64,000 bases of DNA from assembly GCA_040954595.2 (NCBI GenBank), contig CM082595.2:10095918-10159917 (forward strand). The letters are read 5' to 3'. This DNA comes from Balanoglossus misakiensis. Its lineage: Eukaryota > Animalia > Hemichordata. Each line of letters starts with the position of its first letter. Position 1 is the first letter of the stretch. Both the position numbers and the translations under genes were made by a program. The notes beneath the pieces are model-generated. The model made no database searches. It was given only the letters and a program-made list of their open reading frames with translations, and was not told the origin of the DNA. Below are positions 20,896 through 64,000 of the stretch, one piece after another.

Positions 20896-20910
20896 AACTT
20901 TTGGTATTTC

Positions 20911-23553: not shown

Positions 23554-23615
23554 TTTTGTTAATTTGGATTTGATGGGGTCATCAATATGCAAATTAGATC
23601 TAAAAATAGAATTTT

Positions 23616-30879: not shown

Positions 30880-31670
30880 CACTGCAAATTCTGCAAAAAC
30901 AAGCCGGTTTGTACTCAAGCCATTCGGGTTTGCTGACAAGCCACCTCGTCATACTTGCCGAAACTTCGGTATTTCCACAAGCCGCTAAATTTTCTGGTGT
31001 GTGCCAGCAAGCCAGTAAATGTTAGAAAAATGGTTTGTAAATACGCCGCTGGACAACCTGTCTGGAATGGCTTATTATTAAGCCATTGAACACAATCTCT
31101 GGTTTGCTCGCAAACTTTAGTGATACTTATGTCTGGCTCGAATTTGTACCATATTTAACCTTGGCTGCATTTTAAGCCGTTGGAGTTAGTGGTCGCTTTT
31201 CAAACCATAAAAAGATGTATGTATGGTTTGAAAACACGCCATGGAAAACTTTGCCGGGATGTGGTTCATATACACGCCACGCTGGGCACAATGTCTTGCG
31301 AAATACCCTGATTTGGCGCGCGAATGCAGGGTCAAAGGTTATTTATTACACAACTACAACGTTTTGACGCGAGAGAAGACGGTCCACGGGTGAGGAAGCC
31401 GATCGAATCACGTCGTTCCCTTTATAAAATTCGTTCAGCGATTTACAATGCACTCAACCTGTTCCTAAGGTAGAACCGAAATACTATATGCGTGGATAAT
31501 TACTTTGGCACCGAGCATCGTTATGGAAGGATGACATCTAATGACTTAGCAGTTGACCGCCAGCATCTACGAGACCGTAACATAGAACAATGCCGGTTGG
31601 GGTAAGTCCTGCTTCCATTCCATTTTGTGACAGTAACTACATTTTTGCGAGCAGTGAAGATAATACAAAA

Positions 31671-35332: not shown

Positions 35333-38300
35333 TAGTGTCTGTCATATTGTGACGGAGATTTAGCCGAGCCAGGCCGTAGAAAATTCGACTTGTTCATCGT
35401 TACCAGTGTGCAACTGTTTCTGCTCTAGAGTGTCAGGGTTTTAGCCGACTTATGCTGTAGGAAATCTGAGTTGATGAACGGGATTTCAATGTTAGAAAAC
35501 CCGCGTGGAAAGTATCTCTACCCGTTTGAAACTAAGAAAATAATTTATTCTTATTTATTTTGTAAAAAAGACAATTTTTCGAAAAAAAGTCGAAAATGGT
35601 AATTTTGTCTTGGGTGATTCAAATTATACCGCCTTTTCTAGAATTTGCAGCACTTTTTACAAGAGAACGACACTTCATGCTCCATAATATTTCCGAAAAT
35701 GAAGAAAAGAGTTAATTTTTTAAGATTTTTTTAAAAATTTTCCATTTTTGTCAAAATATGGCCAAAATGGCTATTTTTTCTTGAATTCCGTCAATATCTC
35801 AGCATTTTTGGAGTGGTCGCAAGTTTTAACATACAATCAACATGTCATATATGATCAGGCACCAAATTCGAAGAACAAAGGTTTTTTATTTTTTTTCTTC
35901 TAAAAATGACATTTTCAAGGAAAATTTGGTAAAACGCAATTTTGTCTGCAGTGAGCCAAATTAGACGGTCTTTTGTGGAATTTGTATCGATATATATATA
36001 CGAAGAGCATTCTATACTCCATCAGATTTCCGAAAATGTAGAAAACAGGTATTTTTGTAATTTTCAAAAATTTACCATTTTGACCAAATTGTGGCTAAAA
36101 TTGTTATTTTCGTGATGAATGCCGCCAGTGTCACTACTTTTAAAAGTCATAAAAACTTTTAACATACAAGCAATTGTTTATATATGATCAGGTCACCGAA
36201 TTAAAAAAATAAAGAATGTTTTGCCTAAAAATGAACTTTTTGGTGCAAAAACGAATAAAACACAATCTTGTATTAAATCAGTTCATTCAGAGTGCATGTT
36301 TTATAATAAGCACCATTTTTACATATAATGGAAATTTCATACATCATCAGATATCCAAATATGAAAAAATGATTTAGATTTTAGATGATTGTCCAAAATA
36401 AGCTGATATCTAATAAATGTAGTATTGAACCGTTCTGTTCCCCCCCCTACATTATATGCGGTACGCCGATGTCAGCTTACCCGGCAGTACTGCAGGCCGT
36501 GCTCCCAACTAACGTCGGTGTTTGAAGCGCCCTGGTTAAATTCGGGCTTTCTCTATAAATTGACAGGCAATAATGCAGTCCTACCCGAACAAATGTCGAG
36601 TGTTGACCCGCTGTGACTTTCCCTCTTCGGTTTGCCCGACTTAGCCAACGTCTTTGTACTAGAGTGTCGGGTCTTTTGCAGAGCCAGGCCGAAGGAAATC
36701 CGACTTGATCACCGTTGCTAACGAACGCTAGTGTCTGTCATGGTGTACCGGGGTTTTAGTCGAGCCAGGCCGTAGGAGAACTGACTTGATCATCGTGGTC
36801 AATGTGCGCGTGTTTCCGCTCTAAAGTGCCGGGGCTTCAGCTAAACCAGACCGTAGGAAATCCGACGTAATCACCGTTGATAACTTACGCCAGTCTGTGT
36901 CATATAGAGCCGGTGCACCAGCCGAGTCACGCCGTAGGAAATCTGACTTGATCAACGTGGTCAATGTAAGCCTGTTTCTGCTCTAGAGTGCCGGGGCTTC
37001 AGCTGAGCCAGGCCGTAGGAAACCCGACGTGATTACCGTTGTTAACTTACGCCAGTCTGTGTCCTATATATAGTGCCGGGGCATCAGCCGTGCCAGGCCG
37101 AAGGAAATGTGAGTAGATCAACGTGTTCTCTGTACGCGTGTTTCTGCTCTAGAGTGCCAGGGCTTTAGCCAAGCCATGCCGTAGGAAATCTGACTTGATC
37201 AACGTTGCTAACGAACGCTAGTGTCTGTCATAGTGTGCCGGGGTTTTAGTCGAGCCAAGCCGTAAGAGATCTGACTTGATCATCGTGGTCAATGTACGCG
37301 TGTTTCCGCTCTAAAGTGCCGGGGCTTCAGCTAAACCAGACCGTAGGAAATCCGACGTAATCACCGTTGATAACTTACGCCAGTCTGTGTCATATAGAGC
37401 CGGTGCACCAGCCGAGTCACGCCGTAGGAAATCTGACTTGATCAACGTGGTCAATGTAAGCCTGTTTCTACTCTAGAGTGCCGGGGCTTCAGCTGAGCCA
37501 GGCCGTAGGAAACCCGACGTGATTACCGTTGTTAACTTACGCCAGTCTGTGTCCTATATATAGTGCCGGGGCATCAGCCGTGCCAGGCCGAAGGAAATGT
37601 GAGTAGATCAACGTGTTCTCTGTACGCGTGTTTCTGCTCTAGAGTGCCAGGGCTTTAGCCAAGCCATGCCGTAGGAAATCTGACTTGATCAACGTTGCTA
37701 ACGAACGCTAGTGTCTGTCATAGTGTTCCGGGGTTTTAGTCGAGCCAAGCCATAGGAGATCTGACTTGATCATCGTGGTCAATGTACGCGTGTTTCCGCT
37801 CTAAAGTGCCGGGGCTTCAGCTAAACCAGACCGTAGGAAATCCGACGTAATCACCGTTGATAACTTACGCCAGTCTGTGTCATATAGAGCCGGTGCACCA
37901 GCCGAGTCACGCCGTAGGAAATCTGACTTGATCAACGTGGTCAATGTAAGCCTGTTTCTGCTCTAGAGTGCCGGGGCTTCAGCTGAGCCAGGCCGTAGGA
38001 AACCCGACGTGATTACCGTTGTTAACTTACGCCAGTCTGTGTCCTATATATAGTGCCGGGGCATCAGCCGTGCCAGGCCGAAGGAAATGTGAGTAGATCA
38101 ACGTGTTTTCTGTACGCGTGTTTCTGCTCTAGAGGGCCAGGGCTTTAGCCAAGCCATGCCGTAGGAAATATGACTTGATCAACGTTGCTAACGAACGCTA
38201 GTGTCTGTCATAGTGTGCCGGGGTTTTAGTCGAGCCAAGCCGTAGATCAGACTTGATCAACGTGGTCTCTGTACGCGTGTTTCTGCTCTAGAGTGCCGGG

Positions 38301-39926
38301 GCTTTATCCAAGCCATGCCGTAGAAAATCTGACTTGATCACCGTTGCTAACCTACGCTAGTGTCTGTCATATTGTGACGGAGATTTAGCCGAGCCAGGCC
38401 GTAGAAAAATCGACTTGTTCAACGTTGCCAGTGTGCAACTGTTTCTGCTCTAGAGTGTCAGGGTTTTAGCCGACTTATGCTGTAGGAAATCTGAGTTGAT
38501 GAACGTGAATTCAATGTTAGAAAACCCGTGTAGAAAGTATCTCTACCCGTTTGAAACTAAGAAAAGAATTTATTCTTATTTATTTTGTAAAAAAGACAAT
38601 TTTTCGAAAAAAAGTCGAAAAATTGCAATTTTGTCTTGGGTGATTCAAATTATACCGCCTTTGCTGGAATTTGCAGCACTTTTTACAAGAGAACGACACT
38701 TCATGCTCCATAATATTTCCGAAAATGAAGAAAAGGCTTAATTTTTTATGATTTTTCAAAAATTTACCATTTTTGTCAAAATATGGCGAAAATGGCTATT
38801 TTTCTTGAATTCCGTCAATATCTCTGCATTTTTGGAGTGGTCGAGAGTTTTAACATACAATCAACATGTCATATATGATCAGGGCACCAAATTCGAAGAA
38901 CAAAGGTTTTTTTAGTTTTTTTTCTAAAAATGACATTTTCAAGGAAAATTTGGTAAAAAGCAATTTTGTCTGCAGTGAGCCACATTAGACGGTCTTTTGT
39001 GGAATTTGTATCGATATATACATACGAAGAGCATTCTATACTCCATCAGATTTCCGAAAATGTAGAAAACAGGTATTTTTTGTAATTTTCAAAAATTTAC
39101 CATTTTGACCAAATTGTGGCTAAAATTGTTATTTTCGTGTTGAATGCCGCCAGTGTCACTGCTTTTAAAAGTCATAAAAACTTTAAACATACAAGCAATT
39201 GTTTATATATGATCAGGTCACCGAATTAAAAAAATAAAGACTGTTTTGCCTAAAAATGACCTTTTTGGTGCAAAAACGAATAAAACGCAATTTTGTATTA
39301 AATCAGCTCATTCAGAGTGCATTTTTTATAATCAGCACCATTTTTACATATAATGGAAATTTCATACATCATCAGATATCCAAATATGAAAAAATGATTT
39401 AGATTTTAGATGATTGTCCAAAATTAGCTGATATCTAATAAATGTAGTATTGAACCGTTCTGTTCCCCCCCCCCCCCCTACATTATATGCGGTACGCCGA
39501 TGTCAGCTTACCCGGCAGTACTGCAGGCCGTGCCCCCAACTAACGTCGGTGTTTGAAACGCCCTGGTTAAATTCGAGCTTTCTCTATAAATTGACAGGCA
39601 ATAATGCAGTCCTACCCGAACAAATGTCGAGTGTTGACCCGCTGTGACTTTCCCTCTTCGGTTTGCCCGACTTAGCCAACGTCTTTGTACTAGAGTGTCG
39701 GGTCTTTTGCAGAGCCAGGCCGAAGGAAATCCGACTTGACCACCGTTGCTAACGAACGCTAGTGTCTGTCATGGTGTGCCGGGGTTTTAGTCGAGCCAGG
39801 CCGTAGGAGATCTGACTTGATCATCGTGGTCAATGTACGCGTGTTTCCGCTCTAAAGTGCCGGGGCTTCAGCTAAACCAGGCCGTAGGAAATCCGACGTA
39901 ATCACCGTTGATAACTTACGCCAGTC
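35333..39926. repeat. Composite macrosatellite, orientation B
   Basis: Poly-C at ~36439 and 39465. The unit between them is expanded by a 490-bp block present three times. Confidence 0.96.
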
Positions 39927-40122
39927 AATCAATCAATCAATCAATCAAATTTATTTCACTTCAATTTTTTTTACATCGAATGGTGAAAAAGAAAATGTAC
40001 TATTTAAGTGAAAAAGGAGGTAGGAAAAATAGTGCATTCGCACTAGTCAAGTCCATCCCCTCATGGTGAACAGTAGAACACTTGGTTAGTAATACATACA
40101 AAAGGAAGAAATAAAAGTCAAA

Positions 40123-41781
40123 CTATACTTTTCCTAACAAGGATTTCATATGTTTCTTAAATGAAAATGTTGACCTTGTTGAGCGCATATTTTCAGGAAG
40201 TTTATTCCAAACCTTTGCTGCAGTGTACTTTATGGAATGTTGGCCAGCATTACTGTTATATTTCGGAATAAAAAGATCACCTATATCTTTTGATCTGGTA
40301 TGATAAGAGTGTTGAATAGGAACGAAATACTCTGAGAATCCTGGTGGAAGCTTGCCATTAAGAGCATCATGAACAAACAAGGACAGTTGAAGATCACGTT
40401 GCTTGTATACATTCAAAATATGTAACTCATTAAACAATGGTGAAGAGTGTGCAAGACGGTCTGATCCCGCCAATACACGTACAATTCTTTTCTGTGTAAC
40501 AAGTATTGGCCTCAAAAAAGATAAATAAGTATTTCCCCAAGTTTCTATAGCATAGGAAATGTGTGGGAGGATAAAACAATTGTACAATAGTATAAGAATA
40601 TGTCGTGGGACAACATCCCTTAACCTATAAAGAATACCAGTCTTCATACTAATCGTTCTGTTTACATTTCTAATGTGATGTTTCCATGTTAACTTATTGT
40701 CTATTTCTACACCGATATACTTAGTTGTTTGTACTTCGTCTATTGTTACCCCTTTAACATCAATTTCTCCTGTTGTCTCTACTGACACGTTCTTACCTCT
40801 AAAAATAACATATTCAGTTTTCTTTGAGTGTACAGTTAATTTGTTGGCATCACACCAGTTTATAACATTTTTCAATTGTGAATTAACTTCTGAGAGATCT
40901 ATTATATTTCTTGGATTAAATGTATGAAATAGACTGGTATCGTCTGCAAATAGACGCGTGTCAAAATACCTTGCTGCCCCTGCTATATCATTTACATAGA
41001 TGAGAAAAAGTGTTGGACCCAGCACAGAACCTTGTGGAACTCCACAGGATATTTGTAATTCATCTGATCGTACCCCATTTACATTTACATGTTGCCTTCT
41101 GTTGGTCAAATAGCTTCTAAAAAGATTTTTAGGGAGTCCCCTAACACCATAATTGTCCAGTTTGTCTATCAAAATGTCATGATTCGCGGTGTCAAATGCT
41201 TTCTTCAAGTCAAGAAATATCCCGATAACCTTATTTCCCATATCAATTTCGTCCAGAATTTTCTGTGCTAGTTCCACAATTGCCAATTTAGTACTATAAT
41301 TCTCTCTGAAGCCATACTGGTAAGGGTACAGTAAATCAAATTTGTTAAAATAGGAAATAATTTGCTTATTAATAAGTTTTTCAAAAATTTTACTAATTTG
41401 TGGCAATACAGACACTGGTCTAAAATTACCTGGATCAGTCGTCTCTCCTTTTTTGAAGATAGGAGTCACTTTTGCTATTTTTAAGGAATCTGGGAAAATT
41501 CAAGTTGTGATCGTTAAATTGATAATATAACTAAGAGGCTTAGAAATATATAATGCTGCATTGATTAACAATTTTGGGCTAATGTAGTCATAACCCACTG
41601 CCTTCCGCGTATCTAATGCTTGAAGTAATTTAAAAACTTCTTGTTCAGAGGTTCCTTGAAGAAAAAAAGAATGCAATGTACAATGTGATAAGTATGACAA
41701 GTAACTTTTGTTTGAATGAGTTATACTACTAGCAAGAGCCTCTCCAATTTGGACAAAAAACTCATTAAACCCATTGACAAT
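40123..41781 (-). pseudogene. LINE ORF2 reverse-transcriptase part
   Basis: Motifs NFRPVSVLP, QYGFR, FLDLKKAFDT, GVPQGSVLGP, LFADD and KYIGV. An in-frame TGA at 41500-41502 separates the two collinear ORFs. Confidence 0.92.
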
Positions 41782-43015
41782 TCATGGTTCCACAGCTGTC
41801 AATCACACTGAACCCTCAGCCAATCAGAGCCGAGAAAAGTCATGCTGTTCACACAACCGCCATTTTGTCCCACATATAATCAACAACGTGGCCCAGCCTA
41901 CAGTACACGCTCAGGTAGAGATAGACAGACTGGAAGAGTTTTTTCAGTTTTAGGAACTTAATGGTTTTAAAATATCGGCCAGAATAGTGAAGAGATGCGC
42001 CTGGGGGACGTGTAAATCAGATGAAAGGTACCTTGACCCAACATCGAGTATATTTTTTTGTTCCGTTTCCGAAGCCAAAAACGCAAAGAGAGAGGTGTCT
42101 CAGGTGGTGGATATTAACAGTTTGCGTTTAGATTTTAAACTGACACGTCTTCAATATAAATATTTAACCAAGATTTTATTGCTAAAGTGTTTGAAAATTT
42201 TGAAATTCATATGCTGCTTGCAATTTCCATTCGAAAAGTCAATGTTGTTCGACCCGTTATAAAATGTCCGGCGTTGTAAACAATGGGGCCGCCCGCTGTC
42301 AATCCAAGTAACGTTCACGTAGTTTTCTGAATTCGCCGTGTTATCAGTGCTTTCACCCATATTTACCTACCAAAAATATCTTCAGGTGAAGTGATACCTC
42401 TTGTGTCTCTTATTTCGTCTGATTTCACTCAGAAATAGCACGATAAACTTAACCTTCGAGGTCCGTTATTACTAGTACTATAGCCACTGCTACAGCTGAT
42501 CGCGGTTTAATGCCCGTTTGCGTGTGACCCGGGCCGACCGCATAACATGATCTTTCGATCGTTTTAAAATAGTGCTATTTTTTCGCTGAAATGTTTTAAA
42601 TTCACAAAGGAGCTCAATTTCATGGACACTTGGTCTATGTATGTGATAAACATATAATTCCCCCGTATTCCTCACTCGTGTGTCTGCGTCGCGAACTCGA
42701 CATTCCCAGTATAGCCTGCGGCCCGGGGGATACGGCCGCTATCGTCCGCGATGCAGGCACTTTCGTTCGAAATACGGGGGAATTATACCTAATTAAACCC
42801 TTTTCCTGTGACTTCTTGGATAGGTTTTTTAACTCTGGTAGGTAGCATACAGAAATATCGCCAGGAACGTTGCGCAGACTATCGCTGAATGAATCTAGTT
42901 TCCCCATCCACGTTGTGGAGCTATGGAGGTCAAAGTCCCACAAGCTCGAAGCTTGTGGGGCGTAGCAACAGTAACTAAGGGGGGCGTGGCTTATTACCGT
43001 AGGGTGGAACTATGA
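41782..43015 (+). mobile_element. Non-autonomous ISL2EU-like (PIF/Harbinger-related) DNA transposon with THAP remnant
   Basis: 12-bp TIRs TCATGGTTCCAC / GTGGAACTATGA (1 mismatch) and an AT duplication. Removing it restores the LINE frame ...TQCDI|VNGFNEFF. Confidence 0.75.
41984..42110 (+). pseudogene. N-terminal half of a THAP zinc-finger domain
   Basis: VKRCAWGTCKSDERY, then after a frameshift in a T-run FVPFPKPKTQRERCLRW, giving the THAP pattern C-x4-C...FP...W. The start codon appears as ATA. Confidence 0.75.
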
Positions 43016-43503
43016 ATGTCACACTGGGTGATCAGGGTAGTCTGCCGACCAGCTGAAGACATTTGTAAACTACTTGGTAGATTTACATGTTTACCACCAC
43101 CCCTCAAAATATCATTAATAACTTTCCATGTCTTACTAGTATCTGCTTGATAGTATGTAAACTGGTCAGAATAATAATCTTGCTTAGCCTTTTTCAGAAT
43201 ATTTGTAAGCATGTTCCGGTAGCATTTGTATTTTGTAAAGACGTCTGGCCGATAATTAGTTTTTAAGACATTTGAGTAGAGCTTGTGTTTCTGGTCAATT
43301 GATTTTTTTATTCCAGCAGTTATCCATGGTTTCCGTATTTTTCTTTTTGAACTAAGCTTTTTAGAAAGCAGTGGAGCATGCTTATTACAAATATTCGAGA
43401 AAATGGTTAAAAACGAGTCATATGCTGTATTAGCATCAGTACTCTCATACACAGCTGCCCAATTGACACTACTTAACTCATCTTGAAATAAACCTATATT
43501 AAA
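43016..43503 (-). pseudogene. LINE ORF2 linker segment between APE and RT
   Basis: FNIGLFQDELSSVNW...KPWITAGIKKSI...YKCYRN...KTWKVIN, typical of the CR1/L2 ORF2 linker. Confidence 0.88.
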
Positions 43504-46500
43504 ATTAAAGCTGCAAGCAGCATTGTCCGGGCCCAAGCTCTATTATCTGATCTGATGCTAATATAGTGTTAAGTAGGTCAAAGGTCACCCGAGGTCACCC
43601 AACATTTGGGCAAAATATTTTGACCCCATACTGGTCCATGTATAACAAAAACAAAACCTCTAGGTCTATTGGTTCATCTGTAATTAGGTATATGCATATT
43701 TAATGAGGTCAGCAGAGGTCAAAGGGGTCATGAAAAGTAGCAAAATTTTTTGATCACATACAAATCCACATACATCAAAAACCAAACTTATAGCCCTATT
43801 GGTTAGCCTGGAATTAGATATGCAGAAAAATGATGCGTCAAAAGTAGGTCAAAGGTCATTGCCAAAATTACCAAAATATTTATAGGTTATTCTTGTCATA
43901 TGATGATTCATATCCATAAAAAGAATTTCTGTGCTATCAATTTTTAGGCTAGAAAAGGAATTTTTACTTTTTAATCGTTTTTCACAAAATCCAATATGGC
44001 CGCCATAATCTTCGACCAATCACATTCCCCTTCGCAAACTTGATAGACATCTGTTTAATGACCACACACACCAAATCTTGTGACTCGGTTATCGCCCGTT
44101 CTGGAGAAGAAGATTTTTGAAGTTTTACTATGGTTTTTCGAAAATCCAATATGGCCGCCATAATCTTCGACCAATCACAATGATCTTCGCAAACTTGATA
44201 GACATCAGTTAGGTGACCACATACCCCAAACGGCGTGACTCGGTTATCGCCGGTTCTGGAGAAGAAGATTTTTGAAATTTTGACCAGATTTCAGAAAAAC
44301 AACTGTAGCAAAAAAACTGCAACATTGACAGCAAAATATCCAATTACAAAAATGATGGGCAGAGGGTATACTACCAGCACGCCAAATCTGAACTCGATCT
44401 GACTTGTAGTTTCTGAGATCTGAGATTTGCATTTTTTCAGAAAATCCAATATGGCCGCCATGTCACGTGACTAATTAAGTATTCACAAGTCACTGCACAT
44501 CTACTCATTGACCTTGACCACTGTAGCAAGTTTGAGAACTGTACCTGCAGCGGTGTCTGAGATCTAGAGCGCGAAAGAAGTGAACCAAGAATAAAGAAAG
44601 AAAGAAAGATTAAAGCTGCAAGCAGCATTGTCCGGGCCCAAGCTCTATTATCTGATCTGATTATTAGATATGCACATAATTAATGAATACAAACATAATG
44701 CTGTGTTTTATCCCAAGAAATATCAAGGTTATATCTATGTTTGGTGCTGATATAGTGTTAAGTAGGTCAAAGGTCACCCAGGGGTCACCCACAATTTGGG
44801 GAGAATATTTTGACCCATAGTGGTCCATGTCCAACAAAAACCAGACCTCTAGCCCTTTTGGTTAGCCCGGAATTAGGTATGCACATAAATAATGAGTTAA
44901 GCAGGTGTCACAGGTGACCCAAAACTTTGGCTTTTCATTATGGCCCCATATCTCCAAATGCCAAGGCTGTACCTGCTTTGGATGCCGAGATAAGCAAAAG
45001 TAGGTCAAAGGTCATCTGAGGTCACCCAAAATTTGGGCAGAAAATGTTTACCCATAGTGGTCCATGTCCAATAAAAACTAGACCTCTAGCTCTATCGGTT
45101 CGCCTGTAATTAGTTATGCACATAATTAATGAGGTCAGCTGAGGTCACAGGTGACCCAAAACTTTGGCTTTTCATTATGGCCCCATATCTCCAAATGCCA
45201 AGACTGTACCTGCTTTGGATGCAGAGATATGCAAAAGTAGGTCAAAGGTCACCGGAGGTCACCCAACATTTGGGCAAAACATTTTGACCCCATACTGATC
45301 CATGTCCAAGAAAACCCAAACCTTTAGGTCTATTGGTTAATCTGTAATTAGGTATGCGCATATTTAATGAGGTCACCAGAGGTCAAAGGGGTCATGAAAA
45401 GTAGCAAAATTTTTTGATCACATACAAATCCACATACATCAAAAACCAAACTTATAGCCCTATTGGTTAGCCTGGAATTAGATATGCAGAAAAATGATGC
45501 GTCAAAAGTAGGTCAAAGGTCATTGCCAAAATTACCAAAATATTTATAGCTTATTCTTTTCATATGATGATTCATATCCATAAAAAGAATTTCTGTGCTA
45601 TCAATTTTTAGGCTAGAAAAGGAATTTTTACTTTTTAATCGTTTTTCACAAAATCCAATATGGCCGCCATAATCTTCGACCAATCACATTCCCCTTCGCA
45701 AACTTGATAGACATCTGTTTAATGACCACACACACCAAATCTTGTGACTCGGTTATCGCCCGTTCTTGAGAAGAAGATTTTTGAAGTTTTACTATGGTTT
45801 TTCGAAAATCCAATATGGCCGCCATAATCTTCGACCAATCACAATGATCTTCGCAAACTTGATAGACATCAGTTAGGTGACCACATACCCCAAACCGCGT
45901 GACTCAGTTATCACCGGTTCTGGAGAAGAAGATTTTTGAAATTTAAGCCAGATTTCAGAAAAAAAATTGTAGCAAAAAAACTGCAACATTTACAGCAAAA
46001 TATCCAATTACAAAAATGATGGGTAGAAGGTAGACTACCTGCACACCAAATTTGAAGTCGATCTGACTTGTAGTTTCTGAGATCTGAGATTTGCATTTTT
46101 TCAGAAAATCCAATATGGCCGCCAGGTCACGTGACTAATTAAAAATTCAAGGGTTCAATGCACGACTACTCATTGACCTTGACCACTGTAGCAAGTTTCA
46201 GAAGTGTACCTGCAGCGGTGTCTGAGATCTAGAGCGACAAAGAATTGACAGAAGAATAAAGAAAGAAAGAAAGAAAGAAAGAAAGAATTAAAGCTGCAAG
46301 CAGCATTGTCCGGGCCCAAGCTCTATTATCTGATCTGATTATTAGATATGCACATAATTAATGAGTAGAAACATAATGCAGTGTTTTATCCCATGAAATA
46401 TCAAGGTTATATCTATGTTTGGTGCTGATATAGTGTTAAGTAGGTCAAAGGTCACCCAGGGGTCACCCACAATTTGGGCAGAATATTTTGACCCATAGTG

Positions 46501-49500
46501 GTCAATGTCCAACAAAAACCAGACCTCTAGCCCTTTTGGTTAACCCGGAATTAGGTATGCACATAAATAATGCGTAAAGCAGGTGTCACAGGTGACCCCA
46601 CAACTTTGGCTTTTCATTATGGCCCCATACCTCCAAACGCCAAGGTTGTACCTGCTTTGGATGCTGAGATATGCAAAAGTAGGTCAAAGGTCATCTGAGG
46701 TCACCCAAAATTTGGGTAGAAAATTTTGACCCGTAGTGGTCCATGTATAACAAAAACAAAACCTCTAGGTCTATTGGTTCATCTGTAATTAGGTATGTGC
46801 ATATTTAATGAGTAAAGCAGGTGTCACAGGTGACCCAAAACTTTGGCTTTTCATTATGGCCCCATACCTCCAAACGCCAAGGCTGTATCTGGTGTGGATG
46901 TCGAGATATGCAAAAGTAGGTCAAAGGTCACCCGAGGTCATCCAACATTTGGGCAAAATATTTTGACCCCATACTGATCCATGTCCAGAAAAAAACAAAC
47001 CTCTAGGTCATTTGGTTCATCTGTAATTAGGTATGCGCATATTTAATGAGGTCACCAGAGGTCAAAGGGGTCATGAAAAGTAGCAAAAATTTTTGATCAC
47101 ATACAAAACCACATACATCAAAAACCAAACTTATAGCCCTATTGGTTAGCCTGGAATTAGATATGCAGAAAAATGATGCGTCAAAAGTAGGTCAAAGGTC
47201 ATTGCCAAAATTACCAAAATATTTATAGCTTATTCTTGTCATATGATGATTCATATCCATAAAAAGAATTTCTGTGCTATCAATTTTTAGGCTAGAAACA
47301 GAATTTTTACTTTTTAATCGTTGTTCACAAAATCCAATATGGCCGCCAAAATCTTCGACCAATCACAATGATCTTCGCAAACTTGATAGACATCTGTTTA
47401 ATGACCACACACACCAAATCTTGTGACTCGGTTATCGCCGGTTCTTGAGAAGAAGATTTTTGAAATTTTACTAGGGTTTTTCGAAAATCCAATATGGCCG
47501 CCGTAATCTTCGACCAATCACAATGATCTTCGCAAACTTGATAGACCTCAGTTTGGTGACCACATACCCCAAACCGCGTGACTCGGTTATCGCCGGTTCT
47601 GGAGAAGAAGATTTTTGAAATTTTGACCAGATTTCAGAAAAACAACTGTAGCAAAAAAACTGCAACATTGACAGCAAAATATCCAATTACAAAAATGATG
47701 GGTAGAAGGTAGACTACCTGCACACCAAGTTTGAAGTCGATCTGACTTGTAGTTTCTGAGATCTGAGATTTGCATTTTTTCAGAAAATCTAATATGGCCG
47801 CCAGGTCACGTGACTAATTAAAAATTCAAGGGTTCAATGCACATCTACTCATTGACCTTGACCACTGTAGCAAGTTTGAGAAGTGTACCTGCAGTGGTGT
47901 CTGAGATCTAGAGCGACAAAGAATTGACACAAGAATAAAGAAAGAAGAAAGAAGAAAGAAGGAAAGACAGAATTAAAGCTGCAAGCAGCATTGTCCGGGC
48001 CCAAGCTCTATTATCTGATCTGATTATTAGATATGCACATAATTAATGAGTAGAAACATAATGCTGTGTTTTATCCCATGAAATATCAAGGTTATATCTA
48101 TGTTTGGTGTTGATATAGTGTTAAGTAGGTCAAAGGTCATCTGAGGTCACCCAAAATTTGGGCAGAAAATTTTGACCCATAGTGGTCCATGTCCAACAAA
48201 AACCAGACCTCTAGCCCTTTTGGTTAGCCCGGAATTAGGTATGCACATAAATAATGCGTAAAGCAGGTGTCACAGGTGACCCAAAACTTTGGCTTTTCAT
48301 TATGGCCCCAAACCTCCAAATGCCAAGACTATACCTGCTTTGGATGCCGATATATGCAAAAGTAGGTCAAAGGTCATCTGAGGTCATCCAAAATTTGGGC
48401 AGAAAATTTTGACCCATAGTGGTCCATGTCCAACAAAAACCAGACATCTAGCCCTTTTGGTTAGCCCGGAATTAGGTATGCACATAAATAATGAGTAAAG
48501 CAGGTGTCACAGGTGACCCAAAACTTTGGCTTTTCATTATGGCCCCATACCTCCAAACGCCAAGGCTGTATCTGGTTTGGATGTCGAGATATGCAAAAGT
48601 AGGTCAAAGGTCACCCGAGGTCACCCAACATTTGGGCAAAATATTTTGACCCCATACTGGTCCATGTATAACAAAAACAAAACCTCTAAGGTCTATTGGT
48701 TGATCATTAATTAGGTATGCGCATATTTAATGAGGTCACCAGAGGTCAAAGGGGTCATGAAAAGTAGCAAAATTTTTTGATCACATACAAATCCACATAC
48801 ATCAAAAACCAAACTTATAGCCCTATTGGGTAGCCTGGAATTAGATATGCAGAAAAATGATGCGTCAAAAGTAGGTCAAAGGTCATTGCCAAAATTACCA
48901 AAATATTTATAGCTTATTCTTGGCATATGATGATTCATATCCATAAAAAGAATTTCTGTGCTATCAATTTTTAGGCTAGAAAGGGAATTTTTACTTTTTA
49001 ATTGTTTTTCACAAAATCCAATATGGCCGCCATAATCTTCGACCAATTACATTCTTCTTCGCAAATTTGATAGACATCTGTTTAATGACCACACACACCA
49101 AATCTTGTGACTCAGTTATCGCCGGTTCTTGAGAAGAAGATTTTTGAAATTTTACTAGGGTTTTACGAAAATCCAATATGGCCGCCATAATCTTCGACCA
49201 ATCACAATGATCTTCGCAAACTTGATAGACATCAGTTAGGTGACCACATACCCAAAACCCCGTGTCTTGGTTTTCACTGGTTCTGGAGAAGAAGATTTTT
49301 AAAATTTATGCCAGATTTCAGAAAAAAAATTGTAGCAAAAAACTGCAACTTTGTCAGCATAATTTCTAATTACAAAAATGATGGGCAGAAGGTAGTCTAC
49401 CAGCTTGCCAAATTTGAAGTCGATCTGACTTGTAGTTTCTGAGATCTGAGATTTGCATTTTTTCAGAAAATCCAAGATGGCCGCCAGGTCACGTGACTAA

Positions 49501-51570
49501 TTAAAAATTCAAGGGTTCAATGCACGACTACTCATTGACCTTGACCACTGTAGCAAGTTTCAGAAGTGTACCTGCAGCGGTGTCTGAGATCTCGTGGGTC
49601 AAAGAATTGACACAAGAATAAAGAAAGAAAGAAAGTATTAAAGCTGCAAGCAGCATTGTCCGGGCCCAAGCTCTATTATCTGATCTGATTATTAGATATG
49701 CACATAATTAATGAGTAGAAACATAATGCTGTGTTTTATCCCATGAAATATCAAGGTTATATGTATGTTTGGTGCTGATATAGTGTTAAGTAGGTCAAAG
49801 GTCTCCCTGAGGTCACCCACAATTTGGGCAGAAAATTTTACCCATAGTGGTCCATGTCCAACAAAAACAGACCTCTAGCCCTTTTGGTTAGCCCGGAATT
49901 AGGTATGCACATAAATAATGAGTTAAGCAGGTGTCACTGGTGACCCAAAACTTTGGCTTTTCATTATGGCCCCATATCTCCAAATGCCAAGGCTGTACCT
50001 GCTTTGGATGCCGAGATATGCAAAAGTAGGTCAAAGGTCATCTGAGGTCACCCAAAATTTGGGCAGAAAATTTTGACCAATAGTGGTCCATGTCCAACAA
50101 AAAACAGACCTCTAGCCCTTTTGGTTAGCCCGGAATTAGGTATGCACATAAATAATGAGTTAAGCAGGTGTCACAGATGACCCAAAACTTTGGCTTTTCA
50201 TTATGGCCCCATATCTCCAAATGCCAAGGCTGTACCTGCTTTGGATGCCGAGATATGCAAAAGTAGGTCAAAGGTCACCCGAGGTCACCCAACATTTGGG
50301 CAACAAATTTTGACCCAATACTGGTCCATGTCCAACAAAAACCAAACCTCTAGGTCTATTGGTTCATCTGTAATTAGGTATGTGCATATTTAATGAGGTC
50401 AGCAGGGGTCAAAGGGGTCATGAAAAGTAGCGAAATTTTTTGATCACATACAAATCCACATACATCAAAAACCAAAATGATAGCCCTATAGGTTAGCCTG
50501 GAATTAGATATGCAGAAAAAACGATGTGTCAAAAGTAGGTCAAAGGTCATTGCCAAAATTACCAAAATATTTATAGCTTATTCTTGGCATATGATGATTC
50601 ATATCCGTAAAAAGAATTTTTGTGCTATCAATTTTTAGGCTAGAAAGGGAATTTTTACTTTTTAATCGTTTTTCACAAAATCCAATATGGCCGCCATAAT
50701 CTTCGACCAATCACATTCCTCTTCGCAAACTTGATAGACATCTGTTTAATGACCACACACACCAAATCTTGTGACTCAGTTATCGCCGGTTCTTGAGAAG
50801 AAGATTTTTGAAATTTTACTAGGGTTTTTTTAAAATCCAATATGGCCGCCATAATCTTCGACTAATCACAATGATCTTCGCAAACTTGATAGACCTCAGC
50901 TTGGTGACCACATACCCCAAACCGCGTGACTCGGTTATCGCCGGTTCTGGAGAAGAAGATTTTTGAAATTTAAGCCAGATTTCAGAAAAACAACTGTAGC
51001 AAAAAAACTGCAACATTGACAGCAAAATATCTAATTACAAAAATGATGGGCAGAAGGTACACTACCAGCACACCAAATCTGAAGTAAATCTGACTTGTAG
51101 TTTCTGAGATCTGAGATTTGCATTTTTTCAGAAAATCCAAGATGGCCGCCAGGTCATGTGACTAATTAAAAATTCATGGGTTCAATGCACGACTACTCAT
51201 TGACCTTGACCACTGTAGCAAGTTTCAGAAGTGTACCTGCAGTGGTGTCTGAGATCTAGAGCGACAAAGAATTGACACAAGAATAAAGAAAGAAGAAAGA
51301 AAGAAAAACCCCAACGAAACCAATAGGGCCCAAGCGCTGGCTTGCGCTTGGGCCCTAAAAATTCCAACGAAACCAATACGGGCCCAAGCCTGGCTTGGCT
51401 TGGGCCCGTAAAAACCCCAACGAAACCAATAGGGCCCAAGCGCTGGTATGCGCTTGGGCCCTAAAAACCCCAACGAAACCAATAGGGCCCAAGCGCTGGT
51501 ATGCGCTTGGGCCCTAAAAAACCCCAACGAAACCAATACGGGCCCAAGCCTGGCTTGGCTTGGGCCCGTA
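43504..51570 (-). mobile_element. Stack of five non-autonomous Helentrons (HINE family B)
   Basis: Five 3' ends (plus strand attaaagctgcaagcagcattgtccgggcccaagc) at ~43504, 44609, 46287, 47972 and 49637, each body bounded by a (GAAA/GAA)n microsatellite. Five 5' hairpin heads lie at 51304-51570. The subTIR GGGCCCAAGC is shared by heads and tails. Inserted at an A/T run of the LINE. Confidence 0.85.
51304..51570 (-). repeat. Five ~52-bp palindromic HINE 5' heads in tandem
   Basis: Unit ccaacgaaaccaata[c]gggcccaagc-loop-gcttgggccc[g]ta repeated five times, in two main variants. Confidence 0.93.
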
Positions 51571-52442
51571 ATTACGGTAGTCCCTGAAAGTCTCTTTGGT
51601 TTTTGGAAATAAATACGTAGATCCTCAAAGATGGCAAATATAGGCAAATGGTCAGCAAGATGAACATCAATAGTTCCACAATTAACAAAATGACTATGTA
51701 TATTTGTATAAATATGATCAATAACCGTTCTTGAATGATCTGATATACGTGTTGGCACAGTGATCATCTGAGTTAGGTTAAAAGAAGACATACTATTATT
51801 AAGATCAACCGTATCATATGCATTTAAATCAGACGCATTTACATTAAAGTCACCCACAAGTATGCACTGCATCTTCTTGCGGTCAATATCAGTCAATACA
51901 GATTCAAGACTTTCAAGGAATTCGCCTATATTAGTGTTTGGTTTCCTATACACTACTCCAAGAATGAGTGATTTTTTCTTTGGCAAGTCAAATTTGAGCC
52001 AGATAGATTCAGAATGATTTACAGTCGCTTCAATGGAGGTATAATTCAAAGATGAGTCTATATATGCCCCAACTCCCCCACCCCGCTGGTCATTTCGACA
52101 TTTTGTTTCCAAATGATAGCCTTCTAAACAATAAAGCTCTTTATTTTGAACCTGCCAAATCTCTGATAATGCTATAACTTTGATTTTTGATTCATCAAGT
52201 GACTCATAAAACAATTTAAAGTCATGAAAGTTTCGACTGAGGGACCGAACATTACAATGAGATATACAGAATGTAGAAATAGGTGTATTACTAACCAAGT
52301 TGCAGAACTCAGAGTAAGAATATGAATTACATTTCCTATAACAATCAGAGTTTAACAATTGTTCCGCTTCTACAGAAGTCATTGAAATACAATAAATCCA
52401 CAGATTCAGAAAAATAAAATTATTGAACGAATCTATCAACAT
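51571..52442 (-). pseudogene. LINE ORF2 apurinic-like endonuclease part
   Basis: Motifs HCNVRSL, IALSEIW, RGGGVGAYI, GVVYRKP, LVGDFN, TVIDHIY and ADHLPIF. After a frameshift near 51600, TFRDYRN joins FNIGLFQDEL across the HINE stack. Confidence 0.92.
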
Positions 52443-52628
52443 CTGTGGAGTCGTTTTTTCTTTGTATACGGTTTAATTGACTCTCTGAAAATTTTTGTTC
52501 ACCTAGCCACTGTCTACAAAATACATTTGGTGGCCAGAAACTAGACTCAAGCAAAAGCTTAGCCTGGTGAAAGGATACGTCGATTTTAGCAGCAACAGCG
52601 CCTTTGCGTTTACTGGAGATGATTCTCG
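52420..52628 (-). pseudogene. C-terminal remnant of LINE ORF1
   Basis: ...LLLESSFWPPNVFCRQW...*, resembling the FWP-containing ORF1 C-termini of CR1/L2-group elements, lies directly upstream of ORF2. Confidence 0.6.
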
Positions 52629-53914
52629 AGTCTGTGTCATATAGAGCCGGTGCACCAGCCGAGTCACGCCGTACGAAATCTGACTTGATCAACGTGGTCA
52701 ATGTACGCCTGTTTCTGCTCTAGAGTGCCGGGGCTTCAGCTGAGCCAGGCCGTAGGAAACCCGACGTGATTACCGTTGTTAACTTACGCCAGTCTGTGTC
52801 CTATATATAGTGCCGGGGCATCAGCCGTGCCAGGCCGAAGGAAATGTGAGTAGATTAACGTGGTCTCTGTACGCGTGTTTCTGCTCTAGAGTGCCAGGGT
52901 TTTAGCCAAGCCAAGCCGTAGGAAATCTGACTTGATCAACGTTGCTAACGAACGCTAGTGTCTGTCATAGTGTGCCGGGGTTTTAGTCGAGCCAAGCCGT
53001 AGGAGATCAGACTTGATCAACGTGGTCTCTGTACGCGTGTTTCTGCTCTAGAGTGCCGGGGCTTCAGCTGAGCCCGGCCGTAGGAAACCCGACGTGATTA
53101 CCGTTGTTAACATACGCCAGTCTCTGTCCTATATATAGTGCCGGGGCATCAGCCGTGCCAGGCCGAAGGAAATGTGAGTAGATCAACGTGGTCTCTGTAG
53201 GCGTGTTTCTGCTCTAGAGTGCCAGGGCTTTAGCCAAGCCATGCCGTAGGAAATCTGACTTGATCACCGTTGCTAACGAACGCTAGTGTCTGTCATAGTG
53301 TGCCGGGGTTTTAGTCGAGCCAGGCCGTAGGAGATCAGACTTGATCAACGTGGTCTCTGTACGCGTGTTTCTGCTCTAGAGTGCCGGTGCTTTATCCAAG
53401 CCATGCCGTAGAAAATCTGACTTGATCACCGTTGCTAACGTACGCTAGTGTCTGTCATATTGTGACGGAGATTTAGCCGAGCCAGGCCGTAGAAAAATCG
53501 ACTTGTTCAACGTTACCAGTGTGCAACTGTTTCTGCTCTAGAGTGTCAGGGTTTAAGCCGACTTATGCTGTAGGAAATCTGAGTTGATGAACGGGAATTC
53601 AATGTTAGAAAACCCGTGTGGAAAGTATCTCCACCCGTTTGAAACTAAGAAAAGAATTTATTCTTATTTATTTTGTAAAAAAGACAATTTTTCGAAAAAA
53701 AGTCGAAAATGGTAATTTTGTCTTGGGTGATTCAAATTATACCGCCTTTTCTGGAATTTGCAGCACTTTTTTCAAGAGAACGACACTTCATGCTCCATAA
53801 TATTTCCGAAAATGAAGAAAAGAGTTAATTTTTTATGTTTTTTTTAAAAATTTACCATTTTTGTCAAAATATGGCCAAAATGGTTATTTTTTCTTGAATT
53901 CCGTCAATATCTCT
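52629..53914. repeat. Composite macrosatellite, orientation B
   Basis: Continues the monomer interrupted at 39926. Confidence 0.95.
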
Positions 53915-54873
53915 TAGTCCGTGGGCTCGACGGGTCCACCGTGCACCCCCCCCCCCCCATAAACCTACCACTTGGGTATTTTTTTGTTCTTTAGAACGTG
54001 CTGAACAAGAAAAAAGATGTTAACATTGAATATTTGGGTTGCACTACCCCTCCGGGGTGGTTTTTGAATGGTATGTGCCGCTCAAAATGGCGAAAAATTG
54101 GTTGGGGTAGGGGGTACTATATTCTCTCCTAAAAAAATAAAACTACCATGAAATTACATAAACCTCATATTTTTAGAAAGCTTAGATACTGCTCTTTACG
54201 GGAAGCACAAACTTTATTAAACAATATTTATGAATATTTAATTAGATGATTTTTAAATTAATTTTTTCGGCAATTTTGAAAATTTTCACTCAAAAGACAA
54301 TGTTACAATTGTGATTTTCTTTTTGTGAAGCAAATTTTTGACAACGTTTTAGGTTTGGATTATTGACTTCTATTTATTAAACAAGAAAACAAATGTTAAC
54401 ATTAGTTATATAACAATACAATACTTCTTTAGAGACAACTTTGAAATGCATGTATCCTATGGGATTACGCATGGTCTTCGGGTAGGGGGTACTATATCCT
54501 CTCCTACAACAATAAAGCTAGCTTCAAAGTACATAAACCTTATATTTTTAGAAAGCTTAGACACTGCTCTTTACGGGAAGTGCAAATAGGAGTAAAATTA
54601 ATTTTTGATTATTTAATTATATGATTTTTAAATTATTTTCTTCGGCAATTTTGAAAATATTCATCCCCAAAGACAACGCAATGATTGTGATTTTGTTTTT
54701 GTGAAGCAAATTTTTGACAGCTTTTTGGGGTTTGGATTATTGACTTCTATATATACTAAACAAGAAAGGAAATGTTAACATTAGTTATTTAACAATAAAA
54801 CACTTCTTTAGAGACAACTTTGAAATGTGTGTATCCTATGGGATTACGCATGGTCTTGGGGTAGGTGGTACTA
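53915..54873. mobile_element. Unclassified repeat element with ~378-bp internal units, possibly the left arm of an Academ-like transposon (copy 1)
   Basis: Abrupt start TAGTCCGTGGG in the satellite. 'gggtagg(g/t)ggtacta' recurs at ~54105, 54480 and 54859. No matching right terminus is seen. Confidence 0.5.
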
Positions 54874-57800
54874 GATTCTATATTGATTTGAAATGGCAGA
54901 TCAATATGTTTGGTAATAATTCAGTTATTGCAGTTGGGGACTGGAATGTAGTGAGGGTTTTGATGCTGACACAGCTGGCCGCACTACAGACTCTCACTCG
55001 GATGCAAGGCAACAAATTGATCTTCTCTGTGATGAGTATAATTTGATAGATATTTGGCGGGTGATAAACGAGTCCTCGCGTACATTTACGTAGTTTAGGC
55101 GCAAAAGACTGGATTATTTTCTTATTACGCCTGAATTCGCTAATATGACCGCAACTGCAAATATTTGTGTCGGTTACCGGAGTGACCACTCTGCAATACG
55201 TCTCTCTCGGATGACAACGATTATGTGGACATTGTTAAAAACACAATTCGGGATACTAAGGATGAGTACAGACAGGAGGGAAGCTCTCAAGCTGGTCCCA
55301 CTTTTACCATTTCGGATCAACTTTTCTTGGATACGTTGAAAATAAAAATTCGTGGAGTTACGATTTCGTATGCAACTAGGAATTTATTAGGGCCGAGAAA
55401 CAGCTTGAAACGGAGAATATTTTACTAGAAACTCGTGTGAATGATCTATAAACGCCTGACATGTTAGATGAACTGCATGAAAAAAGAACAGTTGATAGCA
55501 TACTGTCAAAAAAGTAGAAGGAAGTCGCGTACGTGCTCGGGCCAGGTGGTCTACAGAAGGGGAAAAACCTACTAAGTATTTTTGCTCTATGGAAAAGAGA
55601 CATTTCACCAATAAAGCCATCGGTCAGCTGTGCCTGAGTGTTGGCTCCACAATAACTGAGGACGAAGACATCCTTCGTGAACAATCTAAGTTTTACCGGA
55701 ATCTATATGCGGCTACCAAAAACGTTGCTTGCAATATTGATCAGTTAGATAATTTTATGCAGCATGGAAATACTTTGCCTACTTTGAGTACTGAGGAACG
55801 GGATTCTTTGGAAGGGGCCCTGTCTAAGCATGAATGTGGAGTAGTGTTGAAGTCAATAGCAAATAATAAGTCACCAGGAACAGACGGTTTTTCTGCCGAA
55901 ATTTTTTTGGCCCGACATTGGTGTTTATATAGCCCGTGCAATTAATTCCGCCTACTCCTCAGGCGAAATGTCTATTTCTCAAAAGCGGGGAATTGTTACT
56001 TGTATCCCGAAACCCAACAAGAATAGATTTCACATGAAAAATTGGCGCCGTATTACATTGCTAAACACGGATGATAAGATTGCATCTGGTGTTATAGCAA
56101 ACCGTATGAAACGGTTCTTGCCAAAAATTATTCACCCTGACTAGAAAGGTTTTCTGAGGAAAGGAAGGTATATTGGTGAAAATACACGTTTGATTGATGA
56201 TGTATCGTTAACTTCAAAGATAGACAAGGTTTTCTTGTACTTCTAGACTTTGAAATGGCGTTTGACACGCTTTCTTGGGAATTTATCGATAAAGCATTGA
56301 GAAAGTTTAATTTTTATCCCTCTTTCAGAAAATGGGTCAAAGTGTTTTATAAAAACACCACTAGTTGTGTTATAAATAACGGAAACTTTCCTGATTTTTT
56401 CCCCTCGAGAGAGGTGTTAGACAAGGTGATCCTCTATCACCGTACCTGTTTATCACCTGTGTTGAAAAACTTGCGCATGAAATCAGAGCCCATAGTAATA
56501 TAGAAGGAATTACACTTAGAGATAAAAAAAATTTACTGGGGCAATACGCAGATGATATTTTTGTATATTTAGATGGTTCTGAAAGTTCTCTGAAAAATCT
56601 GTTTGCTACCTTGGGTTTCTTTACTTTTCTGTCGGGTTTGCGAATTAACTACCAAAAAACTAAATTGGTTTGGTTTGGCGCTAAATGCCATTCACATGAT
56701 ATTTTGTTGCCAAACAAGAACTTATTATGGGTTGATGAACCGTTAACAGTTCTTGGTATTAACCTGAACGTTGATCTTGTTGGGCTCGATATGTTAAATT
56801 TTACACCAAAAGTAAGGGAAGTGTCCACACTGCTTACTAAGTGGTCATGGCGACCTGTGACCTTGTTTGGCAAGATTACAATAGCTAAAACACTTGCTTT
56901 GTCAAAGTTTATTCATATTTTCTCATCCTTACCTCCCATGTCAGATCATCAAATATGTACACTTATTAGAGTTTTATCGGAATTCAAAACCTGATAAAGT
57001 CAATAGATTAAGATTATGTTGTAATTGTGATGAGTGGGGTTTGCGAATGACCCATCTTCCCTCATTCGTTCAAGCAGTGCATGCTTCGTGGATTAACAGA
57101 TTAATGTCCAATCAATATTCTCAGTGGATAGAAATGTTTAAACTGTGGGTATATCCCCTGCTATCTTACCCACTTCACCCCCGCTCAGGTCGTGGAGTTT
57201 GCCAGAAACAGATTTTCACGTCATAGCTTCTGGTACTCAGTACTACTATGTTGGTCAAAAACTTTACCCCCCCCCCCCGACCCTATTAATAACATAAAAA
57301 AGTGTATATAGTTCAACCAGAGATGAAAGTTAACAACGCTACCATATTTTATAAAAACTGGTATGATAATGTTGTAATGTATATTTCGGATTTATTAGAT
57401 TTTTCCGGTTCCATTTTATCTTTCCAAGATTTTAGTAACAGACACAATTTTTCACCAAACTTCATATGGGTTTAATCAACGCTTTTCCAAGATCACGGTT
57501 CAGAAAGATTCAGCAACAAGGCTCTGTAAATAATGACCACCCAAACATGTATTACACAAATAGATCCTGAAAAAAACCTACTCTATTTTACTTATAATAA
57601 GTTATTTTTGAAGAATAATCTTAAACCGATGTGATGTACGCAAAAATGGAAAGACCTCTTCGGGAATTTTGATTCGCAATTACACTATGCTTTACCATTT
57701 ATTGTAACAAAGGATTCTACTTTGCGTAATTTTCAATTCAGAATTGCTAGTAGAATCTGTACTACAAATACATTTTTAAAGATAAGGGGGAAAATGCGAT

Positions 57801-63759: not shown

Positions 63760-64000
63760 GATTCTATATTGATTTGAAATGGCAGATCAATATGTTTGGT
63801 AATAATTCAGTTATTGCAGTTGGGGACTGGAATGTAGTGAGGGTTTTGATGCTGACACAGCTGGCCGCACTACAGACTCTCACTCGGATGCAAGGCAACA
63901 AATTGATCTTCTCTGTGATGAGTATAATTTGATAGATATTTGGCGGATGATAAACGAGTCCTCGCGTACATTTACGTAGTTTAGGCGCAAAAGACTGGAT
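63760..64000 (+). pseudogene. Start of the second copy of the degenerate Tx1/L1 ORF2 (runs off the window)
   Basis: Near-identical to 54874-55114. Confidence 0.85.

Follow-up and report, generated by a model that had tools for sequence, protein, structure and literature searches.

Organisation of the locus

On the minus strand of the window, i.e., the whole 64-kb stretch of DNA that was analysed, the ORF2 of an old LINE is interrupted by a block of five hairpin heads of 53-54 bp followed by five bodies. In minus-strand order the locus comprises the following features:

51572..52472, minus strand: host LINE ORF2, 5′ part, endonuclease (PF14529/PF03372)
51516..51571, minus strand: head H1, type A; starts with two T's, followed by the 14-bp hairpin with its 5′ subterminal inverted repeat, a spacer of 15 nt and T6
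51463..51515, minus strand: head H2, type B; T5 at its end
51410..51462, minus strand: head H3, type B; identical in sequence to H2
51357..51409, minus strand: head H4, type A; two changes ahead of the T-run
51304..51356, minus strand: head H5, type B; variant loop; runs directly into B1
49638..51303, minus strand: body B1, 1666 bp; contains a (CTTT)n microsatellite, repeats of 155 bp and of 237 bp, the 3′ inverted repeat and a small hairpin
47973..49637, minus strand: body B2, 1665 bp
46288..47972, minus strand: body B3, 1685 bp; microsatellite degenerate
44610..46287, minus strand: body B4, 1678 bp
43505..44609, minus strand: body B5, 1105 bp; the bulk of the 237-bp array and a segment ahead of the tail are missing
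40123..43504, minus strand: host LINE ORF2, 3′ part, reverse transcriptase (PF00078); restarts immediately past the last tail

A motif scan of both strands of the whole 64 kb located exactly five heads and five tails of the family, all of them inside the block, in agreement with the equal counts of the initial annotation. Its two interleaved head variants are confirmed as well, the types running A,B,B,A,B along the stack. All five of its 3′ ends were likewise located, although its coordinates lay one T too far out. Head by head, H1 was delimited at 51569-51516. Heads of type A and type B align at 70-77%, and the five heads derive from at least four distinct sequences. Each contains a perfect 14-bp stem starting from the second base (folding energy -18.6 to -18.9 kcal/mol), which is preserved between the two types via compensating changes. 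Since five of the only seven hairpins with stems of at least 11 bp in the 64 kb are these heads, the pattern is not due to chance.

The 155-bp repeats are found in all five bodies and the 237-bp arrays in four, and the final 45 bp are identical throughout. While the bodies do differ in length (1105 versus 1665-1685 bp) as originally described, their repeats come in the same order: the four long ones align collinearly over their full length, and B5 departs from them by missing internal sequence alone. At the 3′ end an inverted match lies 23-24 bp from the end; it measures 11 bp for type A and 10 bp for type B. The 3′ hairpin, identical in all tails, is small, with a stem of 4 bp, and weak, the tail as a whole folding at -3.0 kcal/mol. 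H5 and B1 together form a single uninterrupted copy of about 1.72 kb, and the T5 of H5 (51308-51304) is the sole unoccupied landing site in the stack.

The host LINE and its empty site

In homologues the two LINE halves are consecutive (P0003: left piece to residue 276, right piece from 282). Unoccupied copies of the LINE were found in contigs of the sequencing runs X1 and X2, which together with a third run, X3, come from one sample, possibly the source of the assembly; X3 contains only 0.14 of the words and added little, and contig depth does not equal copy number. In an X2 contig of 506 letters (depth 592) the left LINE flank continues directly into the letters of the right flank, the same LINE loose end occurs in two X1 contigs, and the X1 depth at 51576-51617 is the sum of two contigs of the unoccupied LINE. 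The empty site has four T's and the filled site in the window two plus four, with no other letter duplicated. In comparison with the unoccupied LINE copies the outer insertion hence brought a net gain of two T's, for which terminal T's of the element and a TT target duplication are indistinguishable. Among the contigs no LINE-to-H1 junction of this locus itself was detected, and contigs of this type lose rare variants.

With respect to the LINE itself, its 5′ part misses 4 bp near 51591 when compared to some other copies, and at about 41895-43015 its 3′ part carries a further insert, which is unrelated. Located within a broken LINE amid repeat-rich DNA, the block looks to be without effect on the host.

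Family identity

Judged by its sequence characters, the element is likely a small non-coding transposon of the non-autonomous Helitron2/Helentron type. In the descriptions of Helitron2 by Bao and Jurka 2013 (PMC3627910) and of HLE2 in HELIANO (PMC11417382), a hairpin-forming 5′ inverted repeat that lies within 0-2 bp of the end, as in all five heads, is combined with a 3′ inverted repeat of 8-15 bp located 20-30 bp from the end and before a hairpin, compensating stem changes between subfamilies, and insertion in T runs with other letters unduplicated, all of which are also found here. However, head stacking at a fixed internal site is absent from these descriptions.

Similarly, HINE/DINE-1 elements, which are non-autonomous Helentrons and include the oyster Cg_HINE, are described (PMC4067079, PMC2374699, PMC7492417) as having a 5′ subTIR with a nested inverted repeat, a 4-nt microsatellite, central tandem repeats, a 3′ subTIR with a stem-loop, a TT or T-rich target and variable terminal T's. 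They also lack coding capacity, in line with the longest stop-free frame wholly within the block, which measures 102 aa. In contrast to these elements, the microsatellite here is (CTTT)n instead of GTCY and directly follows the T5 landing site, and their descriptions mention clustering and head-to-tail arrays but not balanced nests. Helentrons in the strict sense have an autonomous partner in which RepHel is fused to an AP endonuclease; the endonuclease beside the block is that of the host LINE. HLE2 elements share their ends with an autonomous RepHel element; no autonomous partner was detected in the window, none of the nine window ORFs scanned having a Rep or helicase domain. The T-rich ends and the T-run target do not agree with a canonical Helitron (HLE1; 5′ TC, 3′ CTRR, A/T insertion), and a SINE with a head derived from a structured RNA does not agree with the lack of any Rfam match at gathering score in 43400-51700.

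Junctions and T counts

When two T's are assigned to each element, three of the inner layers give back a host run of T5, and the fourth gives an equally long run that includes one A. Accordingly, the T's at the left and right junctions sum to 7, 7, 7 and 7 in the nested pairing, which is one of six out of 24 possible pairings that balance. As T numbers at Helentron ends vary (PMC4067079), this arithmetic is weakened as a strict rule.

Junctions of both kinds are abundant in the contigs. A head-to-head junction variant reaches a summed depth of at least 45,032 in X1 (at least 10 contigs) and at least 20,886 in X2 (at least 4 contigs), and a tail-to-microsatellite variant, which is not matched to the former, at least 36,083 in X1 (at least 2 contigs) and at least 10,157 in X2 (at least 3 contigs); for comparison, the LINE flank reaches up to 9,670 (X1) and 592 (X2). 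Most minor junction variants among those listed have depths of 10-52. None of the contigs listed extends for 31 letters to both sides of a head-to-head junction, the best having 36 and 23. Joints from the end of H4 to the start of a body occur in one X1 contig, with 12 other letters in between, and in four X2 contigs, the short sides of 19-22 letters being too short to establish H4-B2. Tail-to-head joints exist as well (depths 714 and 1,144 in X1; a loose end in three contigs), and look rarer than the nested junctions among the contigs listed.

Body divergence and head-body pairing

The bodies are 93.3-95.6% identical to each other, with longest identical runs of 72-207 bp, and neighbouring bodies are no more alike than others, as 52 of the 120 possible orderings match the observed neighbour similarity; this argues against local duplication. 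Nesting predicts the pairs H1-B5, H2-B4, H3-B3, H4-B2 and H5-B1. Over 1083 shared columns the corresponding split of the bodies by head type ranks second of ten, and that of a parallel pairing tenth. In the first 60 and the first 260 columns, both windows having been picked after viewing the alignment, the predicted split ranks first, and in the first 120 second. The closest pair of bodies (42 differences) is B3 and B4, the predicted owners of the identical heads H2 and H3; these two bodies also adjoin, so that their closeness is compatible with duplication, too. Counting against the pairing, B2 and B5, both predicted owners of type A heads, are the most distant pair (71 differences). Across the nested pairing, of which the initial annotation had named the outer and inner pairs, head type is linked to body type only weakly. 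Eight conflicting two-body groupings, each with 3-5 columns, mark the bodies as mosaic. Private changes amount to 6-27 per body, and the expectation that inner copies are nearest to the consensus fails among the five bodies, the innermost B1 having 19 and B4 only 6.

Origin of the stack

Given the empty site in the LINE, the balanced T's, the even divergence of the bodies and the abundance of both kinds of junctions, we consider it probable (about 0.85) that the stack was made by serial self-insertion, each copy entering the T-run behind the front hairpin of the previous one, as had been proposed from the sequence at first inspection. A first copy would have inserted into the LINE, followed by four later copies that, in the same direction, each entered the T5 about 50 bp inside the preceding copy. 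For all four insertions to meet in a single T/A run of five or more, of the 21 per copy, the probability is 5e-6 with the run named, and about 1e-4 if it was not named beforehand. Every event would be a separate rolling-circle insertion, with the RepHel enzyme presumably provided from elsewhere in the genome. Each arrival would separate a 53-bp head from the body of the resident copy and also supply a new head-T5-(CTTT)n site, such that the stack would renew its own target; the last copy in would be the innermost, and H1/B5 the outermost and earliest.

The least certain point is why this T-run was used among the 46 T/A runs of at least four letters that a copy offers. RepHel might be recruited by the 14-bp hairpin of the resident copy together with the inverted repeat, 15 nt upstream, single-stranded DNA possibly being exposed as well. 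Alternatively, and compatible with serial insertion, there may be no hairpin recognition at all, T5-(CTTT)n simply being the best sequence match that an abundant family strikes often; the chances of this alternative are not far short of even. In its favour, the Helitron2 elements of Chlamydomonas enter between TTTT and T/C (PMC3627910), the outermost copy took an ordinary T4 in the LINE, and one contig (depth 140) has an insertion a few bases further along, within the microsatellite. Also the T5-T6 runs between the stacked heads, which likewise lie behind a hairpin, were never reused. Were every head T-run as likely a target as the next, the chance of this would be 1 in 24, and it directs attention to the sequence downstream. 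However, of the 21 T/A runs of five or more per copy no other was struck in the five bodies. Hairpin recruitment is favoured, yet the odds are close to even when it is set against a simple sequence preference, namely for TTTT and then T/C within a pyrimidine tract. The more far-reaching proposal that the family's RepHel binds the resident hairpin and cuts an intact T5-(CTTT)n 15-20 nt behind it, and that the element carries and renews its own landing pad genome-wide, is put forward tentatively.

It is unlikely that the stack was wholly or partly built elsewhere and moved as a composite, a RepHel starting from the outer head reading through the inner ends, with fewer than five events at this locus. 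Copies with several 5′ ends do transpose in Fusarium and Helitrons are known to bypass ends (PMC5148889), and copied composites could partly explain the high junction depths; however, the published case combines a single 3′ end with many 5′ ends, in contrast to the equal counts observed here, a move of the whole block requires four bypasses, and nesting would still be required as the initial step. Separate local amplification of heads and bodies by slippage or unequal crossing-over, with equal counts by coincidence, is highly improbable: besides the relationship of B3 and B4 it could account for the adjacent identical heads H2 and H3, but not readily for alternating head types, bodies that differ by 4-7% or junction T's that balance in nested order, and a body before nesting has no repeat at both ends that could seed a duplication. 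An assembly artefact might be suspected for a locus known from the assembly and a family so extremely abundant in the contigs, but is hardly credible, as every body has private changes, the flanks rejoin to an empty site present in contigs, and read-derived contigs hold both junction types.

Integration of a circle by homologous recombination is rejected by reasoning, as it would yield head-to-tail dimers; a rolling-circle array would consist of tandem head-body-tail units, whereas here all heads precede the bodies; and equal counts are at odds with truncated rolling-circle arrays, in which a single 3′ end goes with many 5′ ends (Xiong et al. 2016, via PMC12628747).

Relation to known nests and significance

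Closest to the present case is FoHeli of Fusarium oxysporum, a Helitron2-like element with short repeated 5′ termini (31-85 nt; up to five) ascribed to self-insertion; in Metarhizium a case was read either as two insertions into a different copy's 5′ end or as rolling-circle replication (PMC5148889, PMC13342296). By the main-text description, however, the many 5′ ends of FoHeli mostly go with one 3′ end and occur at several positions, whereas in the present stack the five heads are matched by five bodies at a single site, with the empty site of the host resolved as well. For MITEs, an insertion preference leads to same-family multimers by independent events, which were proposed as satellite seeds (PMC5172404, citing Jiang and Wessler 2001; PMC5932611). 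In contrast to the stack, these multimers and the TE dimers formed by double insertion are, as described there, mostly target-duplicating, and the dimers are head-to-tail and not nested. SaTar arrays target microsatellites and are explicitly non-nested (PMC5907723), and the nesting described in PMC3630058 concerns only elements of other types.

For animal HINEs, stacks with equal numbers of heads and bodies were not found described in the literature searched, which comprised main texts and few subscription papers. The stacked-head pattern matched 29 loci in metagenome contigs, none of which resembled a relative (GC-rich or simple-repeat matches), and the head and tail patterns had no match in viral contigs or in prokaryote genomes.

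As self-insertion near the 5′ end has already been published for fungal Helitron2-like elements (PMC5148889, PMC13342296), the stack is a clean animal example and not a new kind of element. Biochemical work on the target choice of Helitron2/Helentron elements has been called for (PMC4067079), and a fixed, self-renewing internal site offers a precise substrate for testing it. In annotation, such stacks would be mistaken for two tandem repeats, one of 53 bp and one of 1.7 kb. A site of this kind also provides a route to satellite-like arrays without unequal crossing-over, and orders the activity of subfamilies. If RepHel does bind the resident hairpin and the element carries its landing pad genome-wide, new copies would be sheltered in already-dead DNA, their order of arrival would be kept like nested brackets, and long repeat arrays could arise from transposition alone.

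Structure and classification of the nest

The nest is real and well resolved, and occupies a single block of the minus strand:

51571-43505, minus strand: nest block, five heads followed by five bodies (motif scan and alignment)

The heads are numbered from H1, outermost on the 51571 side, to H5, and the bodies from B1, which adjoins H5, to B5; outside the block, the motif scan found 0 further heads or tails of the family in the window. The five heads are 53-54 bp long, and each (5/5) has a perfect 14-bp hairpin with a folding energy of -18.6 to -18.9 kcal/mol (DNA parameters), followed by 15 nt of spacer and then 5-6 T's. They belong to type A (H1, H4) or type B (H2, H3, H5), which differ by changes that compensate for each other and so preserve the stem. 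The bodies (B1 to B5: 1666, 1665, 1685, 1678 and 1105 bp) all start with a (CTTT)n tract, contain 155-bp repeats and are identical over their final 45 bp. In each tail, 10-11 bp of the head recur in inverted orientation, 23-24 bp short of the end, and a small hairpin is present. The four long bodies, which are collinear, also contain arrays of 237-bp repeats; B5 lacks some internal sequence, and the difference in repeat order claimed in the initial annotation was not found. The longest reading frame in the block has 102 aa, Rfam gave no matches in the block, and a Rep or helicase domain was detected in 0 of the 9 ORFs scanned in the window.

These features agree with the definition of Helitron2 as worded in part of PMC3627910, and with the layout of HINE/DINE-1 elements, i.e., non-autonomous Helentrons, as described in passages of PMC4067079, PMC2374699 and PMC7492417. 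The element, known here from non-autonomous copies alone, thus appears to work like a non-autonomous Helitron2/Helentron, with which all structural tests run agreed.

The host retrotransposon and its empty site

The flanks of the block are the two halves of one LINE ORF2, with the endonuclease on one side and the reverse transcriptase on the other, and these halves are consecutive in nine homologues. The region was found in three public sequencing runs, all from one sample of one study and possibly the source of the assembly. In one run (X2), a contig of 506 letters with a depth of 592 matches the left flank up to 51570 and then continues with right-flank letters, and in another (X1) two contigs have the same loose end at the LINE flank. 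The empty LINE site contains four T's, against two plus four in the occupied site, so that arrival of the outer element left a net gain of two T's and of no other letter.

The host LINE also lacks 4 bp at 51591 that other copies carry. Unoccupied LINE copies with the same loss reach a depth of 2,349 in X1, so that the broken LINE variant was itself multiplied. Another insert, single-copy and about 1.1 kb long, splits the host LINE further on (41895-43015).

Probable serial insertion behind the newest head

It is highly probable (about 0.85) that the block records five separate insertion events, of which the last four used the T5 run behind the newest head. The first element would have entered the LINE and each of the four later arrivals the T5 run behind the most recent head, pairing H1 with B5, H2 with B4, H3 with B3 and H4 with B2 and leaving H5 and B1 as one uninterrupted copy. 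One copy contains 46 T/A runs with a length of at least four, of which 21 reach at least five, and the chance of 4/4 insertions at one named run is 2e-7 to 5e-6, for a locus that was picked for its striking look. A pure nest further needs the T runs between the stacked heads never to have been reused (1 in 24 if the head T runs are equal), which suggests that the target includes the downstream microsatellite. We would give about even odds to recruitment of RepHel, the enzyme of the autonomous Helitron partner, by the resident hairpin, and much the same to use of the T5 site merely as the best TTTT-T/C sequence.

Under nested pairing, 4/4 layers give a total of 7 when the T's to the left of an inner head are added to the letters that separate the matching tail from the microsatellite, i.e., the five-letter host run plus two, and the same run stands unoccupied behind H5; in one of these layers an A replaces one of the five run letters. 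These balanced counts fit nesting but discriminate only mildly, because 6 of the 24 possible left/right junction pairings balance. The T's at Helentron ends vary according to part of PMC4067079.

With respect to local duplication as opposed to independent arrival, the bodies are 93.3-95.6% identical in pairwise comparison, identical runs between them never exceed 207 bp, and neighbouring bodies are no more alike than expected (52/120 orderings). The claim that head type predicts body pairing was weakly borne out: over 1083 shared columns the predicted split ranks second of ten, since the three type-B bodies cluster, and the parallel pairing ranks last, but B2 and B5, the predicted type-A bodies, lie furthest apart of all pairs. 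B3 and B4, predicted owners of the identical heads H3 and H2, are the closest pair, yet they are also adjacent. Body similarity thus weakly supports the nested pairing, and the conflicting groupings point to mosaic bodies. Private changes number 19, 27, 15, 6 and 18 from B1 to B5; the innermost copy, expected to be nearest to the consensus, has 19 as against 6 in B4, which leaves an age gradient unsupported.

Junctions in sequencing contigs

Among the contigs listed, a head-to-head junction with one T fewer than H1-H2 has a summed depth of 45,032 in X1 (10 contigs) and 20,886 in X2 (4 contigs), and a tail-to-microsatellite junction that lacks one letter of the window's version reaches 36,083 (2 contigs) and 10,157 (3 contigs), respectively, as compared to 9,670 and 592 for the multi-copy LINE flank; contig depth is not copy number, and the two junction variants are not a matched pair. 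Tail-to-head joints have depths of 714 and 1,144 among the matches listed. No contig among those listed has at least 31 letters on both sides of the head-to-head junction. We read both junction types as common in this genome and comparable in magnitude, in line with what nesting would predict.

At 51574, exactly two T's separate a tail from a type A head in three X1 contigs, the arrangement expected of a circle junction or a tandem pair.

Other elements in the window

A repeat whose units measure about 2.0-2.3 kb, are 92-97% alike and contain 81/162-bp subrepeats occupies much of the window; it looks like a satellite interrupted by many insertions.

1-12950, 19888-20785, 24830-30880, 35330-39930, 52630-53910, 58130-62420, strand switch near 11650: repeat of about 2.0-2.3 kb
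13651-19848, plus strand: BEL/Pao retrotransposon, stop-free frame of 2065 aa with Pao peptidase, reverse transcriptase and integrase matches
20785-24828, plus strand: second HINE-type element of a different family, with its own head, matching tail, (CGTC)n tract and 146-bp repeats
54102-55114, 62609-64000: element containing tandem repeats of 375-379 bp, present in two copies that are about 97% alike and both adjoin the ~2-kb repeat
55499-56994, plus strand: pieces of a further non-LTR retrotransposon, the second of them matching reverse transcriptase

A search starting from the left flank of the BEL/Pao element gave no match for a terminal repeat. A T run in the ~2-kb repeat is the insertion site of the second HINE-type element, which contains an element bounded by terminal inverted repeats (21572-23552) and, from a relative of the nest family, a 3' part that lacks the head, with 216-bp repeats 73-83% alike and a related tail near 24690.

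Relation to known cases

For Fusarium Helitron2-like elements, passages of PMC5148889 and PMC13342296 report insertion of the element into itself near the 5' end, and repeated 5' termini of 31-85 nt with up to five 5' ends. MITE self-insertion (part of PMC5172404) and TE dimers (part of PMC5932611) are likewise known and have been proposed as seeds for satellites, and nested, shuffled Helentron parts have been reviewed for the oyster (PMC12628747). In the literature searched, mostly the main texts of open-access papers, animal HINEs were not found described as forming balanced stacks at a single fixed site. The insertion step itself is already documented in fungi, and the nest would add to it a balanced fixed-site stack in an animal; hairpin-guided self-targeting, if true, would raise the significance of the nest.
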